Virus record (IMG/VR): IMGVR_UViG_2681813233_000003 | Reading direction: 5' to 3' (one strand) | Origin: a virus | Lineage: Duplodnaviria > Heunggongvirae > Uroviricota > Caudoviricetes | Length of the DNA stretch: 24,003 nucleotides | In this document: one piece after another, positions 7,091 to 21,315 of the stretch | Layout: every line of letters starts with the position of its first letter | Numbering within the stretch: the first letter of the stretch is position 1 | Program-made: the position numbers and the translations under genes | The notes under the pieces: generated by a model | Databases searched by the model: none | Seen by the model: only the letters and a program-made list of their open reading frames with translations | Told to the model about the DNA's origin: nothing

Positions 7091-7788
7091 ACACTTGCTC
7101 CTTTCAGTCCGAACTTAGCTTTGATTTCTGCGATCTTCGCCAGAGCCTGTGCACGATTTAGAGGTCTACCGCCCATGACAGGAAGTTGTTTTACTGGTTC
7201 AGGGATCGCCTCACCACGGTTAATTCTCGCAGTCATATGGACAAGCTCATCTGCGGCCTTACGGCGTAATTCCGCATCAGTAAGCGCATTGGCCCGCATG
7301 TTCTGATACAGGTTGGTAACCAGCCAGTAGTGCGCGTTTGATTTCCACGGATAAGACTCCGCATCCGGATACAGGCCTCGCTTCCGGCAATACTCGTAAA
7401 CCATATCAACCAGCTCGCTGACGTTTGGCAGTCCGGCGATAACGGATGCTTCTTCCCGGCACCATGCAACAAACTGCCCGGGTGATGGCAGAAATGGTCG
7501 ATTCTGCCGACGGGCTACGCGCATTCCTGCGTTAACCTGTTCCATTGTGGTGATCCCGTTTTCCCGGAAAGCCAGCACCCACTGGCGGCGGATTTCGTTC
7601 AGTTCGTTCTGGTCACGGTTAGCCAGACTCGCCGGGAAAGTTGCCAGTAACTGGCTGAACACACCGTTGATGATCTGCGCTACCTGCTGTACCTGCGGCT
7701 TTTCGTCGTACTGTTCCGGCATGTTGTTGGCGATCCGACGCATCTGCTCACGGTCAAAGTTAACCATCTGTGCGGCGATGTTTTTCAT
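7087..7788 (-). CDS. P: Replication protein P (DnaB helicase loader), lambda-type
   Basis: 233 aa; recalled lambda P sequence; overlaps O stop. Confidence 0.95.
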   Translation of the reverse strand: MKNIAAQMVNFDREQMRRIANNMPEQYDEKPQVQQVAQIINGVFSQLLATFPASLANRDQNELNEIRRQWVLAFRENGITTMEQVNAGMRVARRQNRPFLPSPGQFVAWCREEASVIAGLPNVSELVDMVYEYCRKRGLYPDAESYPWKSNAHYWLVTNLYQNMRANALTDAELRRKAADELVHMTARINRGEAIPEPVKQLPVMGGRPLNRAQALAKIAEIKAKFGLKGASV

Positions 7789-8684
7789 AGATCCACCCCG
7801 TAAATCCAGTCTGTGTTTGTCAGGTCGAGTTTTGGTTTGCTGGCTGTCACGACTGCCTGTTGCTTGTTACGGTTGATTTCGAGCTGGGTCCACTTGTCGC
7901 GGAGTTTGGCCGGACTCAGCACGTTACCGGACCAGAAGTTGTCCTGGCAGGCCCAGCGGAAAAGCACACACATATCGCGGTGGTTACGTCCGTCACGTTC
8001 ACGCATCAGGCGGATATCGTTAGCCCACCCAGCAAAATTCGGTTTTCTGGCTGATGGTGCGATAGTCTTCACCATGTCAAACATCCACTCTGCGGCGGTC
8101 AGGTCTTCTGCTGTCCCCCACTTGCTGCCGCTCTGAATTGCAGCATCCGGTTTAACCACAGAAAGATCGTTTTCTGGCTGGTCAGAGGATTCGCCAGAAT
8201 TCTCGGACGAATAATCTTTTCTTTTTTCTTTTGTAATAGTGTCTTTTGTGTCCCCCTGTTTTGAGGGATAGCAATCCCCCAATTTGAGGGATGTTTTATC
8301 CCTCGTTTTAGGGGATTTTCCCTCGTTTTGAGGGATACACCATTCTGAGATGTTTTTATTTGGTCCAAACATGCCGCCTTGCTGCTTGATAATATTCATT
8401 CTGACGAGTTCTAACTTGGCTTCATTGCACCGTTTGACAGGTAACTTTGTAATCTCGCTAAGTTGAGAATCGGTGATTCTGTCCATTGGTTTATTCCACC
8501 CATAGGTTTTACGCAGAATGGCAAGCAGCACTTTAAACTGTCGCTTGGTCAGATCTGCGCCTGAATAAGCCTCAAGCAGCATATTTGATAGTCTGGCGTA
8601 ACCATCATCGAGATCTGCCACATTACGCTCCTGTTTGGCAAAGTTACCTCTGCAGAAGTTGAGTATTTTTGCTGTATTTGTCAT
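7785..8684 (-). CDS. O: Replication initiator O, lambda-type
   Basis: 299 aa; contains the ori-lambda iterons within its coding sequence. Confidence 0.95.
   Translation of the reverse strand: MTNTAKILNFCRGNFAKQERNVADLDDGYARLSNMLLEAYSGADLTKRQFKVLLAILRKTYGWNKPMDRITDSQLSEITKLPVKRCNEAKLELVRMNIIKQQGGMFGPNKNISEWCIPQNEGKSPKTRDKTSLKLGDCYPSKQGDTKDTITKEKRKDYSSENSGESSDQPENDLSVVKPDAAIQSGSKWGTAEDLTAAEWMFDMVKTIAPSARKPNFAGWANDIRLMRERDGRNHRDMCVLFRWACQDNFWSGNVLSPAKLRDKWTQLEINRNKQQAVVTASKPKLDLTNTDWIYGVDL
8251..8336. repeat. ori-lambda iterons (four ~19-bp repeats) with adjacent AT-rich region 8205-8245
   Basis: Repeated tccctcaaaacgagggaaa-type units visible as reverse complement; flanked by an A/T tract. 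Confidence 0.85.
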
Positions 8685-8716
8685 AATGACTCCTGTGGAT
8701 TGATCCAGTAATGACC

Positions 8717-9013
8717 TCAGAATTCCATCTGGATTTGTTCAGAACGCTCGGTTGCCGCCGGGCGTTTTTTATTGGTGAATCCATCAAGCGCATACTTAAA
8801 AGCCCTGCTAATCGGACTTATGTCTGATGCCATTCCGAAAGCACACAAGACCGAAGCAATAAATCTCCAGTCCGTTCTGCTTATCTTCGATTCATGACAG
8901 CCAATCATCTTTGCCAGACCGCGCTGGGTAATAGCTGACAGATTGATAAGTAAATCTGTTTCTGCGCGATCAACGTCACGCTGTGATAGTTTGCTGTAAC
9001 TTGTTCTTTCCAT
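8717..9013 (-). CDS. cII: CII-like transcriptional activator, chimeric (non-lambda N-terminus, lambda-identical C-terminal ~20 aa)
   Basis: C-terminus ...TNKKRPAATERSEQIQMEF matches lambda CII; N-terminal HTH region differs. Confidence 0.8.
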   Translation of the reverse strand: MERTSYSKLSQRDVDRAETDLLINLSAITQRGLAKMIGCHESKISRTDWRFIASVLCAFGMASDISPISRAFKYALDGFTNKKRPAATERSEQIQMEF

Positions 9014-9098
9014 TTCTTAAGATTTCCAATAGTGAATAGTTAGTTGAAAGGTATGCGTGGAAACGCATATGGCCTTAGTTGGTCAGATATCTTGGAAC

Positions 9099-9154: not shown

Positions 9155-9370
9155 TTAAGCGGCTTTGTGTTCCGGCGGGAACACGTCATCAAGACTGACT
9201 TTTGCGCCTAACTTGTTTAGGCATGCAACAAGAGCACGGCATGTTTTAAGGTCTGGGAAGCGACGACCAGATTCCCAATGTCCGATAGCTCCCTGTGTGC
9301 ATCCAACTGCCTTAGCAAGTGTTGTTTGAGAGATATTCAGTGACTCTCGATATTTTCGTAGGTTGCTCAT
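9155..9370 (-). CDS. cro: Cro-like HTH repressor (non-lambda immunity specificity)
   Basis: 71 aa; HTH motif QTTLAKAVGCTQGAIGHWESG; divergent from cI; strong GGAGG RBS. Confidence 0.75.
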   Translation of the reverse strand: MSNLRKYRESLNISQTTLAKAVGCTQGAIGHWESGRRFPDLKTCRALVACLNKLGAKVSLDDVFPPEHKAA

Positions 9371-9479
9371 ATGCCCTCCATAGTAAACACGAATAAAAAT
9401 ACAATATGTACTTTACGAATACAAGTAAAAATACACATTGTGCATGGATGGTTCCAGTACAAAGCGTAATAATAAGGAC
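9371..9479. promoter_or_regulatory. Divergent pR/pRM promoter-operator region (OR) between cro and cI
   Basis: AT-rich 109-bp gap with repeated partially palindromic motifs (tacaatatgta, cacattgtg, ttacaagtaa). Confidence 0.45.
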
Positions 9480-10139
9480 ATGAAAATGAAATGGTATGAA
9501 CTGGCTAGATCCAGAATGAAAGAGCTCGGCATAACTCAAGAGAAGTTAGCCGAAGAGCTAGGTATGACGCAGGGTGGGATTGGACACTGGTTGCGCGGAT
9601 CTCGTCATCCATCTCTTAGTGATATTGGTGTGGTGTTTAAATACCTTGGTATTGATAACATATCATTCAACCACGACGGGACATTTTCACCTGTTGGCGA
9701 ATACTCATCGGCCCCAGTTAAAAAACAATATGAGTACCCTGTTTTTTCTCATGTTCAGGCTGGGATGTTCTCTCCAGAACTCAGAACCTTTACCAAAGGC
9801 GATGCGGAGAGATTGGTAAGCACAACCAAAAAAGCCAGTGACTCTGCATTCTGGCTTGAGGTTGAAGGTAACTCAATGACCGCACCAACAGGTTCCAAAC
9901 CCAGCTTTCCTGACGGGATGTTAATTCTGGTTGACCCTGAGCAAGCTGTTGAGCCCGGCGATTTCTGCATAGCCAGACTTGGTGGTGATGAATTTACCTT
10001 CAAGAAACTGATCAGGGATAGCGGTCAGGTGTTTCTACAGCCACTAAACCCACAATACCCAATGATCCCATGCAATGAGAGTTGTTCCGTTGTGGGGAAA
10101 GTTATCGCCAGCCAATGGCCTGAAGAGACGTTTGGGTGA
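9480..10139 (+). CDS. cI: CI repressor, chimeric: heterologous N-terminal DNA-binding domain fused to lambda-identical C-terminal LexA-like autocleavage/dimerisation domain
   Basis: From ~[14 protein letters not shown] to ...SQWPEETFG matches lambda CI; N-terminal ~95 aa differ; start at MKMKWYE preceded by aagga. Confidence 0.85.
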
Positions 10140-10178
10140 TGAAACCACTTTTATCTACAATTTACAGGGCGGTAAACA

Positions 10179-10736
10179 TTGGCAAAAATAGATGATTATC
10201 AGCCAAGCCAAGTAGAAGTTGATAAAGTACTTTATTGTAAAAAAATAGTTAACTTTTCTGGCGTTAAATGGAAACAGAAACCAAGTCGCTCTGATATGTG
10301 GCTACAAGCTCATATCATCCCCTTGGATGAGGATTGTATACCTATACAAGGGCTAAAGTTTGAACTGAAATGGAAACCAGATCAGGATTCAGAACCTGAT
10401 GACCCGATTTCTTACCCTAAAATAAATATTATTGCTTTCTATCATAACAAGAGGGTTTTCGCGGTAGATACCTATCACTTTGACAAACACACGAATAGTT
10501 ACAAGGTCGATCATCCGAAGTACCAAGATATCATTTACGGTGCTCACTACCATGTATACTATGAAGAAGCTGGATACTATAGTGATAGAATAGCGTTTCC
10601 AATCGAAGATGACATAAACCCAGATGACCTGGTAGGGTATTGGAATTACTTCTGTAAACATCTGAACATAACTTACTCTGGGAGAATACCTTTACCGCTT
10701 GAAGATGAGTCGGGGCAAATGGGGTTTGGAATATGA
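10179..10736 (+). CDS. Unknown protein A (185 aa, aromatic/acidic-rich, no TM) at the rexA position; candidate exclusion/defence component
   Basis: ORF 40 bp downstream of cI stop; probable TTG start (first in-frame ATG only at codon 40); many rare codons (ATA/AGA/AGG/CTA); stop overlaps gene B start. Confidence 0.6.
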   Translation: MAKIDDYQPSQVEVDKVLYCKKIVNFSGVKWKQKPSRSDMWLQAHIIPLDEDCIPIQGLKFELKWKPDQDSEPDDPISYPKINIIAFYHNKRVFAVDTYHFDKHTNSYKVDHPKYQDIIYGAHYHVYYEEAGYYSDRIAFPIEDDINPDDLVGYWNYFCKHLNITYSGRIPLPLEDESGQMGFGI

Positions 10737-11485
10737 TGTGCTCAACAGTGATCTCACAACTAGGTTTCGAATGCCATCCAATAGGCAAGACCTTGAGAAT
10801 TATCAGTCCATTCACTTACTGTGATGATGGAGAGCATGTCGGTGCCTTTATCCGTGAAGTCAATGGTAGGTATTTAGTTAGTGACAGATGCGATGCCTTA
10901 ATGAATATGGAGGCAAGAGGGATCTCGCTTACCAAAAAACGACTTGATGAGATACGACAATTACTGCTTAAAGAAGGCGCAGAACTCAATGCTCGAGGAG
11001 AAATCATTGCTTGGGCAACAGAAAAGGATGTCGGTGCGATTACATCGAACATAATTAGAGCTGGTATACTCGCATCAACTTTGTCGTTAGACTGGTATCA
11101 GCCAGTTCAAGCTGAAAAGTTTGAAAGTATGGTTATTGATTATCTATATCACACAGAGCTTAGAGACGCACTTTCTCTTCGTGAAAACGTATATGGCTTG
11201 AGTGGACATCAAATTACCGTCCCTGTAACAATAAAAACCGACATACCTAAATACGTTTTTACATCAAGCGTGAAACACGGAGGAAGCTGGAATAGTGCTT
11301 ACTCATTGCTTGGGAAACTAATTGATCTTAAAGCTTCAAGTGAGGAGTATAACAACAGATTTGTTGTTATAGACAGCGAAGCAATTGGTGATCAAATGCA
11401 ACAACTCTCCTTACTCTTCCATGAATCAAGCCAAGTTCTACCATTCTCCAAAAGAGAGACTTGGATTAAGAGACTTGCAGCATAA
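10733..11485 (+). CDS. Unknown protein B (250 aa, soluble) at the rexB position; candidate exclusion/defence component
   Basis: ATGATG start overlapping gene A stop (translational coupling); AT-rich with rare codons; followed directly by an intrinsic terminator. Confidence 0.65.
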   Translation: MMCSTVISQLGFECHPIGKTLRIISPFTYCDDGEHVGAFIREVNGRYLVSDRCDALMNMEARGISLTKKRLDEIRQLLLKEGAELNARGEIIAWATEKDVGAITSNIIRAGILASTLSLDWYQPVQAEKFESMVIDYLYHTELRDALSLRENVYGLSGHQITVPVTIKTDIPKYVFTSSVKHGGSWNSAYSLLGKLIDLKASSEEYNNRFVVIDSEAIGDQMQQLSLLFHESSQVLPFSKRETWIKRLAA

Positions 11486-11487
11486 TA

Positions 11488-11517
11488 CAACCCGGCCTCA
11501 GCGCCGGGTTTTCTTTG
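11488..11517 (+). terminator. Intrinsic terminator ending the cI-A-B transcription unit (timm analogue)
   Basis: cccggc-ctcagc-gccggg hairpin followed by TTTTCTTT. Confidence 0.6.
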
Positions 11518-11823: not shown

Positions 11824-11921
11824 GATCACCCAACCACATAAGCTGTGGGATGCAATGCCGAAGCAACCGTCTCAGGAGGAGCTTCGAGATTGCATCGCCA
11901 AAGTTTATTCGGGAGGAATCC

Positions 11922-12194
11922 ATGTCCAGAAAAACAGAATTTAAAGGCACCGCAGCTTCTCGCCGTAGAGCTCGTCGCGCAAATCTGCAAAGTCAGGAGG
12001 CGATCAGCTCCGACAAGCTACACAGGCCAACCCCTTCACGAGTGGTCTTGCAATGCAAGCGCAAACCAGCAATGAGAGCAGAAGTAATAACACTGACAAC
12101 GTTGACCAGAAAATATGAAGGTTCAACTTGTCTTCCGAACGTAGCTCTTTACGCGGCAGGCTACCGGAAATCCAAACAACTGACAGCAAGATGA
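11922..12194 (+). CDS. N: N-type transcription antiterminator, P22 gp24-like (Arg-rich motif near N-terminus)
   Basis: 90 aa from MSRKTEFKGTAASRRRARRANL with gggagg RBS; C-terminus ...VALYAAGYRKSKQLTAR recalled as P22 gene 24-like; not lambda N. Confidence 0.7.
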   Translation: MSRKTEFKGTAASRRRARRANLQSQEAISSDKLHRPTPSRVVLQCKRKPAMRAEVITLTTLTRKYEGSTCLPNVALYAAGYRKSKQLTAR

Positions 12195-12478: not shown

Positions 12479-12928
12479 ATGGAAGAACAAGCAAACAAGA
12501 TTCTCGTAGAACTACTGCAAAAAGCCAGTAATGGAATAGACGCGGCTGTTTCATTTAGCCAGGCACAGATTCCTGATGTTGTTCATCAGTTGCTGCTATG
12601 GAATATGGTTGACAGTCTGATTAAAACATTAATGGCCATTCTAACAATCCCACTGGTTTTCTGGTTTATGAAGAAGCAGTGCCAAAGAGTTGAGACAGGT
12701 AAAATCGGTGATGAAGGATATTCATGGGAGAAAGGAAATCCCAAATACAGGCCGACAATGGTTTGGGATAGCAAAGGTGATATTAATCTTCTTATCATGC
12801 CATTGGTTGGAGTTTTGACTCTGTGGGGGATTTTTATTATTGGTGTAGTAACCAATATGACTTGGTTAAAAATTTGGCTGGCCCCAAAGCTTTACCTTAT
12901 CGAATATGCAGCATCATTGGTTAAGTAA
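12479..12928 (+). CDS. Small membrane protein (149 aa, two predicted TM helices); moron between ral and ea10, possible superinfection-exclusion function
   Basis: Hydrophobic stretches LIKTLMAILTIPLVFWFM and INLLIMPLVGVLTLWGIFIIGVV; aaggtg RBS; own terminator; AT-rich; flanked by 14-bp direct repeat. Confidence 0.6.
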   Translation: MEEQANKILVELLQKASNGIDAAVSFSQAQIPDVVHQLLLWNMVDSLIKTLMAILTIPLVFWFMKKQCQRVETGKIGDEGYSWEKGNPKYRPTMVWDSKGDINLLIMPLVGVLTLWGIFIIGVVTNMTWLKIWLAPKLYLIEYAASLVK

Positions 12929-13492: not shown

Positions 13493-13564
13493 GCGCTGCG
13501 TTACCGCATACCAATAACGCTTCACTCGAGGCGTTTTTCGTTATGTATAAATAAGGAGCACACC

Positions 13565-13729
13565 ATGCAATATGCCATTGCAGGGTGGCCTGTTGCTGGC
13601 TGCCCTTCCGAATCTTTACTTGAACGAATCACCCGTAAATTACGTGACGGATGGAAACGCCTTATCGACATACTTAATCAGCCAGGAGTCCCAAAAAATG
13701 GATCAAACACTTATGGCTATCCAGACTAA
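13565..13729 (+). CDS. cIII: CIII (FtsH inhibitor, stabilises CII)
   Basis: Manual translation [54 protein letters not shown] (54 aa) equals recalled lambda CIII. Confidence 0.9.
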   Translation: MQYAIAGWPVAGCPSESLLERITRKLRDGWKRLIDILNQPGVPKNGSNTYGYPD

Positions 13730-18409: not shown

Positions 18410-18628
18410 ATGTACTTGACACTTCAGGAGTGGAACGCACGCCAGCGACGCCCAAGAAGCCTTGAAACAGTTCGTCGATGGGTACGCGAGTGCAGGATAT
18501 TCCCTCCTCCGGTTAAGGATGGAAGAGAGTATCTGTTCCACGAATCAGCGGTAAAGGTTGACTTAAATCGACCAGTAACAGGTAGCCTTTTGAAGAGGAT
18601 CAGAAATGGGAAGAAGGCGAAGTCATGA
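18410..18628 (+). CDS. xis: Excisionase Xis, lambda-type
   Basis: 72 aa MYLTLQEWNARQRRPRSLETVRRWVRE...; overlaps int start. Confidence 0.95.
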   Translation: MYLTLQEWNARQRRPRSLETVRRWVRECRIFPPPVKDGREYLFHESAVKVDLNRPVTGSLLKRIRNGKKAKS

Positions 18629-19676
18629 GCGCCGGGATTTACCCCCTAACCTTTATATAAGAAACAATGGATATTACTGCTACAGGGACCCAAGGACGGG
18701 TAAAGAGTTTGGATTAGGCCGAGACAGGCGAATCGCAATCACTGAAGCTATACAGGCCAACATTGAGTTATTTTCAGGACACAAACACAAGCCTCTGACA
18801 GCGAGAATCAACGGTGATAATTCCGTTACGTTACATTCATGGCTTGATCGCTACGAAAAAATCCTGGCTAGCAGAGGAATCAAGCAGAAGACACTCATAA
18901 ATTACATGAGCAAAATTAAAGCAATAAGGAGGGGTCTGCCTGATGCTCCACTTGAAGACATCACCACAAAAGAAATTGCGGCAATGCTCAATGGATACAT
19001 AGACGAGGGCAAGGCGGCGTCAGCCAAGTTAATCAGATCAACACTGAGCGATGCATTCCGAGAGGCAATAGCTGAAGGCCATATAACAACAAACCCTGTC
19101 GCTGCCACTCGCGCAGCAAAATCAGAGGTAAGGAGATCAAGACTTACGGCTGACGAATACCTGAAAATTTATCAAGCAGCAGAATCATCACCATGTTGGC
19201 TCAGACTTGCAATGGAACTGGCTGTTGTTACCGGGCAACGAGTTGGTGATTTATGCGAAATGAAGTGGTCTGATATCGTAGATGGATATCTTTATGTCGA
19301 GCAAAGCAAAACAGGCGTAAAAATTGCCATCCCAACAGCATTGCATGTTGATGCTCTCGGAATATCAATGAAGGAAACACTTGATAAATGCAAAGAGATT
19401 CTTGGCGGAGAAACCATAATTGCATCTACTCGTCGCGAACCGCTTTCATCCGGCACAGTATCAAGGTATTTTATGCGCGCACGAAAAGCATCAGGTCTTT
19501 CCTTCGAAGGGGATCCGCCTACCTTTCACGAGTTGCGCAGTTTGTCTGCAAGACTCTATGAGAAGCAGATAAGCGATAAGTTTGCTCAACATCTTCTCGG
19601 GCATAAGTCGGACACCATGGCATCACAGTATCGTGATGACAGAGGCAGGGAGTGGGACAAAATTGAAATCAAATAA
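18606..19676 (+). CDS. int: Integrase Int (tyrosine recombinase), lambda-type
   Basis: 356 aa; near-identical to recalled lambda Int including the catalytic C-terminal region. Confidence 0.97.
   Translation: MGRRRSHERRDLPPNLYIRNNGYYCYRDPRTGKEFGLGRDRRIAITEAIQANIELFSGHKHKPLTARINGDNSVTLHSWLDRYEKILASRGIKQKTLINYMSKIKAIRRGLPDAPLEDITTKEIAAMLNGYIDEGKAASAKLIRSTLSDAFREAIAEGHITTNPVAATRAAKSEVRRSRLTADEYLKIYQAAESSPCWLRLAMELAVVTGQRVGDLCEMKWSDIVDGYLYVEQSKTGVKIAIPTALHVDALGISMKETLDKCKEILGGETIIASTRREPLSSGTVSRYFMRARKASGLSFEGDPPTFHELRSLSARLYEKQISDKFAQHLLGHKSDTMASQYRDDRGREWDKIEIK

Positions 19677-21110: not shown

Positions 21111-21315
<205 letters not shown>

Follow-up and report, generated by a model that had tools for sequence, protein, structure and literature searches.

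The DNA analysed here, referred to as the window, is a stretch of 24,003 nucleotides from the tailed-phage record IMGVR_UViG_2681813233_000003 of IMG/VR, and represents the early and immunity region of a lambdoid prophage in inverted orientation relative to the lambda map. In this region, two genes, designated A and B, were identified on the plus strand downstream of a gene for the cI-type prophage repressor (9444-10139, +), the product of which carries the HTH_3 and Peptidase_S24 domains of Pfam and is annotated as repressor in relatives. Gene A (10179-10736, +) starts with TTG and encodes a protein of 185 amino acid residues (aa), while gene B (10733-11485, +) encodes a protein of 250 aa and starts with ATG within the sequence ATGA, in which the stop codon of A and the start codon of B overlap. 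This two-gene cassette is separated from cI by a terminator-free spacer of 39 nt (10140-10178, +), which forms the left recombination junction, and is followed by an intrinsic terminator (11489-11517, +), consisting of an 8-bp stem with six GC pairs, a 6-nt loop and a T-run, which forms the right recombination junction.

The extent of the cassette was determined by blastn comparison with lambda. The window sequence between 9729 and 10140 corresponds to lambda 37637-37226 with 93% identity, covering the C-terminal domain of cI up to its stop codon. The lambda homology ends at 10140, no similarity was detected between 10141 and 11488, and the similarity restarts at 11489, which corresponds to lambda 35826, one base past position 35825, where the stop codon of rexB begins. 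The terminator of 11489-11517 is identical base for base to the lambda terminator after rexB. With the lambda homology interrupted from the cI stop codon to the terminator behind rexB, the segment between 10141 and 11488 is a precise substitution for the cI-rexA spacer, rexA and rexB of lambda. The initial annotation, made from the sequence alone, had proposed that two translationally coupled open reading frames (ORFs) of 185 and 250 aa occupy the rexA-rexB slot and end at a clean terminator. Both proposals were borne out, the first by this exact replacement and the second by the stability of the hairpin (11489-11510, together with the T-run), which was calculated to be −16.8 kcal/mol (z = −3.8).

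This hairpin was the only terminator-like site detected on the plus strand between cI and the N-like gene (11850-12194). As there is no plus-strand terminator between cI and 11489, read-through from cI is the simplest expectation and the most likely mode of expression of the cassette, and cI, transcribed from pRM or pRE, is presumed to be the source of this transcription. The composition of the cassette had also been considered a mark of foreign origin. The cassette is AT-rich as had been claimed, with a G+C content of 39.5% against 46.6% for the window and of 0.34-0.36 at the third codon position (GC3). However, lambda rexA (40.2%) and rexB (42.5%) as well as the neighbouring genes ea10 and orf149 are comparably AT-rich, and the rare-codon fractions of A and B (0.10-0.11) overlap with those of cro, cII and N. 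For these reasons, the composition of the cassette is what is usual at this position and does not single it out as foreign.

The same two coding sequences are annotated by GenBank or RefSeq in phages ev017, ev207, PhiR57_1 and PhiR63_2 and in E. coli Nissle, on DNA of 99.9-100% identity, and the same cassette DNA is present without annotation in a phage converting its host to production of Shiga toxin (Stx) 1a. The PhiR phages probably stem from the 2025 study of Brenes and Laub. Neither A nor B was found to be Rex-like, as had been noted from the sequence: no match to the families of RexA, RexB, BstA or toxin-antitoxin proteins was obtained for either protein in Pfam, PHROGs, NCBIfam and PADLOC, and blastn against lambda was empty throughout 10141-11488. 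The proposed lack of transmembrane segments also held for both proteins, with the maximum Kyte-Doolittle mean over 19 residues being 0.45 for A and 1.19 for B. Signal peptides were detected in neither, and both proteins are cytoplasmic.

Protein B (WP_000968518.1; phrog_1960) consists of two domains in the AlphaFold model (predicted local distance difference test, pLDDT, 82). The N-terminal domain (residues about 1-120) belongs to DUF1828 (33.5 bits against the Pfam cutoff of 22) and has a fold resembling type III secretion chaperones and YbjN, and the C-terminal domain (residues about 129-250) belongs to DUF1829 and has the PD-(D/E)xK restriction-endonuclease-like fold with an alpha-beta-beta-beta-alpha-beta core. 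This two-domain model agrees with the HHpred values published for exactly the same protein in the DefensePredictor study, 99.5% for DUF1828 and 98.8% for DUF1829 of the clan PDDEXK (PMC13092281). The earlier view that B belongs to no family was thus wrong. The sequence search of PDB with B gave nothing useful. In an alignment extending down to 31-32% identity, the residues F130, V134, L138, G155, S157, G158, P164, T177, G194 and D198 of the C-terminal domain were invariant. With respect to the canonical D...(D/E)xK residues, neither an acidic residue nor a lysine was invariant on the core strands 2 and 3 (160-167 and 173-178). B may possess a non-canonical site, for instance one including H159 or D198. 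A zinc site of Cys and His residues in the N-terminal domain was also considered and was rejected, only C3 and C14 being invariant.

Protein A (WP_001062368.1; phrog_2017) is a small, beta-rich protein. A profile search of 1.84 billion proteins gave only 20 cluster representatives of its very small family; these are all stand-alone proteins (about 100-185 aa), and none showed an informative domain fusion. For A the statement of no family was found to be weak, as there is a marginal match to DUF6978 of Pfam (22 bits, under the gathering cutoff of 29.6). The residues K22, W31, R92, D97, N106, G121, H123, H125, F158 and P173 are invariant across the extended family, H104 is nearly so, and an N-terminal MAK motif is conserved. 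In the AlphaFold model (pLDDT 82; predicted template modelling score, pTM, 0.81), D97, H104/N106 and H123-x-H125 are located on consecutive beta-strands, and this cluster of Asp, His, Asn and His-x-His is read as a putative metal-binding, possibly catalytic, site. Structural relatives of A were found in neither PDB nor BFVD. Two apparent leads were rejected. The designed SAKe propellers, found by the sequence search of PDB with E = 4e-6 for the single sequence and 6e-12 for the profile, included no individually significant stretch, and this match is not homology because the score was inflated by six identical repeats. A cupin-like reading of the sequence GxHxHxxxE was dismissed, since remote members do not keep the Glu and A does not fold like a cupin.

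Evidence for the function of the pair was obtained from two published computational screens, by both of which it has already been flagged as probable defence. In PADLOC, A and B matched the models of PDC-M24 alone. The PDC set comprises 145 phage defence candidates, selected on the grounds that their homologues lie within BREX, DISARM or type I restriction-modification (RM) loci (bioRxiv 10.1101/2024.01.29.577857). B matched PDC-M24B (PDLC04540) with E = 6.1e-10, residues 2-248 being aligned with positions 4-253 of the 256-position model, and also PDLC04539 with E = 1.3e-7. Among 10 remote relatives of A, six matched PDC-M24A and nothing else (E = 2e-4 to 0.04), and four matched DUF6978. The gene organization of PDC-M24 is also the same, with A followed by B, adjacent on one strand, and with A being DUF6978-like and B being DUF1828/DUF1829-like. 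However, the PDC-M24 sequences are highly divergent from A and B of the window, and they reside in BREX, DISARM or RM loci, while the window pair lies instead behind the repressor gene of a prophage, in the slot between cI and N. In the second screen, WP_000968518.1 and WP_001062368.1, both annotated on identical DNA in Nissle, are classed as 'predicted novel defense gene' of an ECOR genome with log-odds of 5.64 and 4.90, respectively (DefensePredictor Table S5, Science 2026, PMC13092281). The novelty claimed for the cassette by the initial annotation was thus overrated, because exactly the same proteins were already in a published prediction list. A defence function for the pair would be no surprise in kind, since the slot has already been recognised as a hotspot of defence genes and these very proteins stand in a published list of predictions.

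For comparison of the genomic context, the pair was examined in 12 independent lineages, including E. coli, Aeromonas caviae (two immunity types), Thorsellia, Klebsiella (Rac-like), Izhakiella, Yersinia, two of Providencia, Xenorhabdus, Pantoea and two metagenomic contigs. The identity to the window proteins ranged from 32 to 78% for B and from 21 to 65% for A. In all 12 lineages, A is located directly upstream of B with its stop overlapping the start of B (ATGA in ten, TAATG in one and an overlap of 13 nt in one), and B was never found without its partner A in the loci examined. Judged from homologues that keep this gene order and overlap down to 21-32% identity, A and B are real genes. The idea that they are decaying or non-functional passengers could draw on the near-clonality of the E. 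coli copies (at least 99% identity), by which selection is unreadable within this species; it is effectively refuted by conservation, since full-length homologues of 21-78% identity keep their length, order, overlap and invariant residues in many genera, and AlphaFold gave confident models of both proteins (pLDDT 82 for both; pTM 0.81 for A).

A cI-like repressor is located 29-650 nt upstream of A on the same strand in 11 of the 12 lineages, with both helix-turn-helix (HTH) and S24 domains except for Klebsiella, in which it carries HTH only. In most of these repressor-linked loci, a divergent cro-like HTH gene adjoins the repressor gene. As the repressors upstream of the pair are only 13-54% identical to the window cI while the identity is 32-78% for B and 21-65% for A, we conclude that the A-B cargo crosses immunity types and keeps its position after the repressor. 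The G+C content of the cassette (0.33-0.62 across lineages) follows that of the host, which argues for long residence of the pair in several lineages. Taken together, A-B is an old mobile cargo, repeatedly arriving or staying in the repressor operon. The start codon of A is TTG or GTG in ten of the 12 lineages, ATG being used only in Thorsellia and one metagenomic contig, and such a conserved weak start points to selection for a small amount of A relative to B.

The gap between the repressor and A is as long as 370-650 nt in several lineages (L008 and L009 of Thorsellia, L016, L018, L020 and L021 in our numbering). In L009 and L016, this gap holds an extra small ORF (114 and 82 aa, respectively) with no confident Pfam match; in some cases a third gene may belong to the cargo unit. 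In an assembly of Actinomadura rugatobispora, a 518-bp contig carries a fragment 82% identical to enterobacterial B together with the end of A; this contig is almost certainly an assembly contamination and not a real actinobacterial homologue.

The linkage of the pair to the repressor, tight and ancient across unrelated immunity types, is also what would be expected if A and B served the phage's own cycle, as accessory factors made together with the repressor for maintenance of lysogeny, for induction or for transactions of DNA, one possibility being a nuclease-like protein that binds DNA and works with its partner on the prophage or on the DNA of superinfecting homoimmune phages. The restriction-endonuclease-like, possibly DNA-binding, domain of B would be suited to such a role. 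Against it stands the variability of the slot. Among the complete E. coli genomes, the same cro/cI-N segment is present in 773 of 5426 and the cassette in 239, and in strain 7784 an identical cI is followed by an unrelated 173-aa hypothetical protein as cargo. From these two observations, the slot is a site for variable cargo. The same cI and cro alleles are also found beside other cargo or beside no cargo at all, lambda has rexAB instead, and close phage relatives swap the cargo while keeping the regulatory genes. Such free exchange would hardly be expected for genes of a core function, and we consider a role in the phage's own cycle unlikely.

The cassette is thus carried by about 4% of the complete E. 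coli genomes, with copies at least 99% identical. The carriers include the probiotic strain Nissle 1917, in which the prophage adjoins icd, the strain 'clone D i14' resembling uropathogenic E. coli, and the Stx1a phage. These carriers might suggest that A-B is a cargo of lysogenic conversion, aiding the host apart from phages in stress tolerance, colonisation or virulence, and bstA, another occupant of the slot, was first tied phenotypically to virulence. Several features, however, make this explanation improbable. Both proteins are cytoplasmic with neither signal peptide nor transmembrane segment, their domains are of the kinds typically seen in conflict systems, and BREX and RM loci harbour relatives of the family. 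Moreover, the genera that carry the pair are associated with insects, plants, fish or the gut and share no niche.

On the basis of these findings, the A-B cassette is probably a lysogen-expressed two-protein module for anti-phage exclusion or abortive infection, representing a divergent prophage-borne branch of the candidate system PDC-M24. This reading is supported by four independent, indirect lines of evidence: both proteins match PDC-M24A and PDC-M24B only; exactly these proteins were predicted to be novel defense genes with log-odds of 4.9 and 5.6; the pair lies behind a prophage repressor in 11 of the 12 lineages; and the cI-N interval is a documented hotspot for rexAB, bstA and DS-34. 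Our estimate started from the validation rate of about 40% for predictions of this score, and was raised for the repressor-linked slot of rexAB and bstA and for the relatives embedded in BREX and RM loci.

Several points weigh against the defence reading. With respect to the family, the match of A to PDC-M24A (PDLC04536; E = 4.8e-4) is marginal, covering residues 104-163 only, and that to DUF6978 is below the cutoff as described above. PDC-M24 is itself still a candidate, so that membership explains little. With respect to the predictions, the pair is absent from Tables S6-S8 of DefensePredictor, which list the 118 cloned transcription units, the validated units and the domain-annotated ones, and by our own count 10 of the 26 units in Table S6 with maximum log-odds of 3.6-7.6 were validated. 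In the literature searched, the coverage of which did not extend to Brenes & Laub 2025, no functional study was found of DUF1828, DUF6978, PDC-M24, the accessions of A and B or the names of the phages. With respect to the context, the position next to the repressor also suits other lysogen-expressed functions, and one lineage (L014) has no recognisable repressor upstream of A-B. The nuclease activity of B is doubtful or non-canonical, since the canonical site is missing from its conserved residues.

The cI-N interval is a recognised hotspot for cargo, in which both rexAB and bstA are found (Owen et al. 2021, citing Degnan et al. 2007). We then compared the cassette with known systems. RexA-RexB of lambda occupies the identical slot between identical flanks, the 3' end of cI and the terminator, and is likewise a two-gene operon, presumably co-transcribed with cI, of similar AT-richness. 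Nevertheless, A and B are unrelated to the Rex proteins in sequence or in family by Pfam, PHROGs, NCBIfam, PADLOC and blastn. In lambda, a separate promoter directs transcription of rexB alone; a counterpart did not turn up in the cassette, although it was not specifically sought. RexB is described as a membrane ion channel (PMC8585504), in contrast to A and B, which have no transmembrane segment.

BstA of prophage BTP1 and DS-34 resemble the cassette in that the defence cargo lies directly behind the prophage repressor, presumably under the common promoter, and is conserved across many prophages. BstA differs as it is a single protein, accompanied by the aba DNA element, and is not homologous to A or B, for which PADLOC gave PDC-M24 matches alone. 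DS-34, consisting of a cI repressor and one downstream gene, has been validated as an anti-phage unit (DefensePredictor Table S6, PMC13092281), and such a validated unit of cI plus downstream cargo supports the generality of the slot. Shedu SduA and Can2/Card1, each combining a sensor with a PD-(D/E)xK domain, differ from it: the canonical D...(D/E)xK residues are missing in B, and its N-terminal domain resembles type III secretion chaperones and YbjN, but neither the CARF domain nor the N-terminal domain of Shedu.

The comparison with DS-6, or HipAD, bears on another explanation, that A-B is an addiction module of toxin-antitoxin type, in which one protein is toxic and the other neutralises it, and which stabilises the prophage or its cryptic remnant with no dedicated anti-phage role. 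DS-6/HipAD is composed of two genes with a 4-nt overlap, the downstream protein carrying an N-terminal DUF followed by DUF1829. This system, laid out like the cassette with the effector first and a DUF1829 partner second, has been validated as anti-phage and interpreted as toxin-antitoxin-like. The cassette agrees with such a module in having two small, translationally coupled genes with a conserved overlap and in the weak start of the upstream gene in ten of the 12 lineages, which fits a dosage-sensitive toxin, and it has been kept in the defective prophage 3 of Nissle (PMC5987069). However, the upstream protein of DS-6/HipAD is a HipA-type kinase, a domain absent from A-B, and its partner has DUF3037 where B has DUF1828. 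Homology between B and DS-6B was rejected, as hhalign of the B family against DS-6B gave a probability of 0.07%. Because of this negative result, the likeness to HipAD is an analogy of layout only, the link resting on separate HHpred matches to DUF1829 in the tables of the published study. Besides the lack of this similarity, no toxin or antitoxin family was matched in Pfam, NCBIfam or PADLOC, and neither A nor B contains HTH or another classic DNA-binding domain of antitoxins. For these reasons, we regard an addiction module as rather unlikely; at the same time, the toxin-antitoxin and anti-phage roles are compatible, many toxin-antitoxin modules being abortive-infection systems.

A possible mode of action can be proposed for the defence module. 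Recombination at the conserved 3' end of cI and at the post-rexB terminator would have placed the cassette in the rexAB slot. In the lysogen, read-through from pRM would then supply two cytoplasmic proteins at low, constitutive and stoichiometrically coupled levels. B could be the sensor or regulator, its chaperone-like DUF1828 domain binding either a phage protein or the partner protein, and its degenerate PD-(D/E)xK domain of DUF1829 acting in DNA binding or as a non-canonical nuclease. A could be the effector with the putative metal site, kept scarce by its weak TTG or GTG start. Upon infection by a heterologous phage, the A-B complex would be released or activated, and as a consequence phage replication would be blocked or the cell would be killed. 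The division of labour herein, with B as the sensor or regulator and A as the dosage-limited effector with a metal site, is favoured only tentatively. The layout of an effector A followed by a partner B parallels that of HipAD. The reverse assignment, with B as a non-canonical nuclease and A as its adaptor, may also apply. Since no structural relative of A was found, it could act by a new mechanism. A further possibility, which we put forward with still greater reserve, is that the cassette represents a mechanistically new type of abortive infection, in which an effector of an unseen fold, A with its His/Asp metal site, would be controlled by B, a chaperone-like sensor joined to a dead restriction-endonuclease fold, PDC-M24 having been recruited both to BREX and RM islands and to the repressor operons of temperate phages in hosts ranging from Aeromonas to E. 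coli.

If the defence function is validated, about 4% of the complete E. coli genomes would carry it, including the probiotic Nissle 1917, lineages of extraintestinal pathogenic E. coli and the Stx1a-converting phage, which bears on phage therapy and on how Stx phages spread. A first function would thereby be assigned to DUF1828, to the DUF6978-like family of A and to PDC-M24, and RexAB and BstA would be joined by a third, non-membrane form of defence expressed from the repressor operon of temperate phages.

An anti-phage phenotype has been described for a gene of the same Nissle prophage. Bury et al. (2018; PMC5987069) reported that a 'phage repressor (pr)' gene from Nissle prophage 3 lowered the plating of lambda and stx phages by about 200-fold. 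Assignment of this phenotype to the A-B cassette or to cI was rejected, the cloning primers mapping to cII (window 8689-9059). Because the primers fall on cII and not on cI, the reported phenotype is probably an effect of cII overexpression.

Elsewhere in the window, the minus strand carries O (7785-8684, −), cII encoding a CII-like activator (8717-9013, −; phrog_191) and cro (9155-9370, −), the protein accession of which is the same as in the phi80 prophage of DH5alpha. The immunity region as a whole and the cI repressor itself are chimeric; the repressor has an N-terminal domain of phi80 type and a C-terminal domain of lambda type, the latter being 93% identical to lambda cI in DNA. Two RNA elements scored above the gathering score of Rfam, the Lambda cIII thermoregulator element (13552-13610, +; 88.5 bits) and naRNA4, an element of repetitive extragenic palindromic (REP) type (21163-21233, −; 60.7 bits). 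A 356-aa ORF (18606-19676) is read as the integrase, as judged by its position, and naRNA4, lying beyond this ORF, is a marker of the chromosomal flank. Downstream of N, a 149-aa ORF on the pL strand (12479-12928, +; phrog_3054) contains two strongly hydrophobic segments. In the corresponding interval of PhiR57_1, ev017 and Nissle, sieB is present on the opposite strand, and the homology to the window breaks between 12195 and 12940. This region is a second cargo swap, and the 149-aa ORF possibly encodes another membrane exclusion protein.

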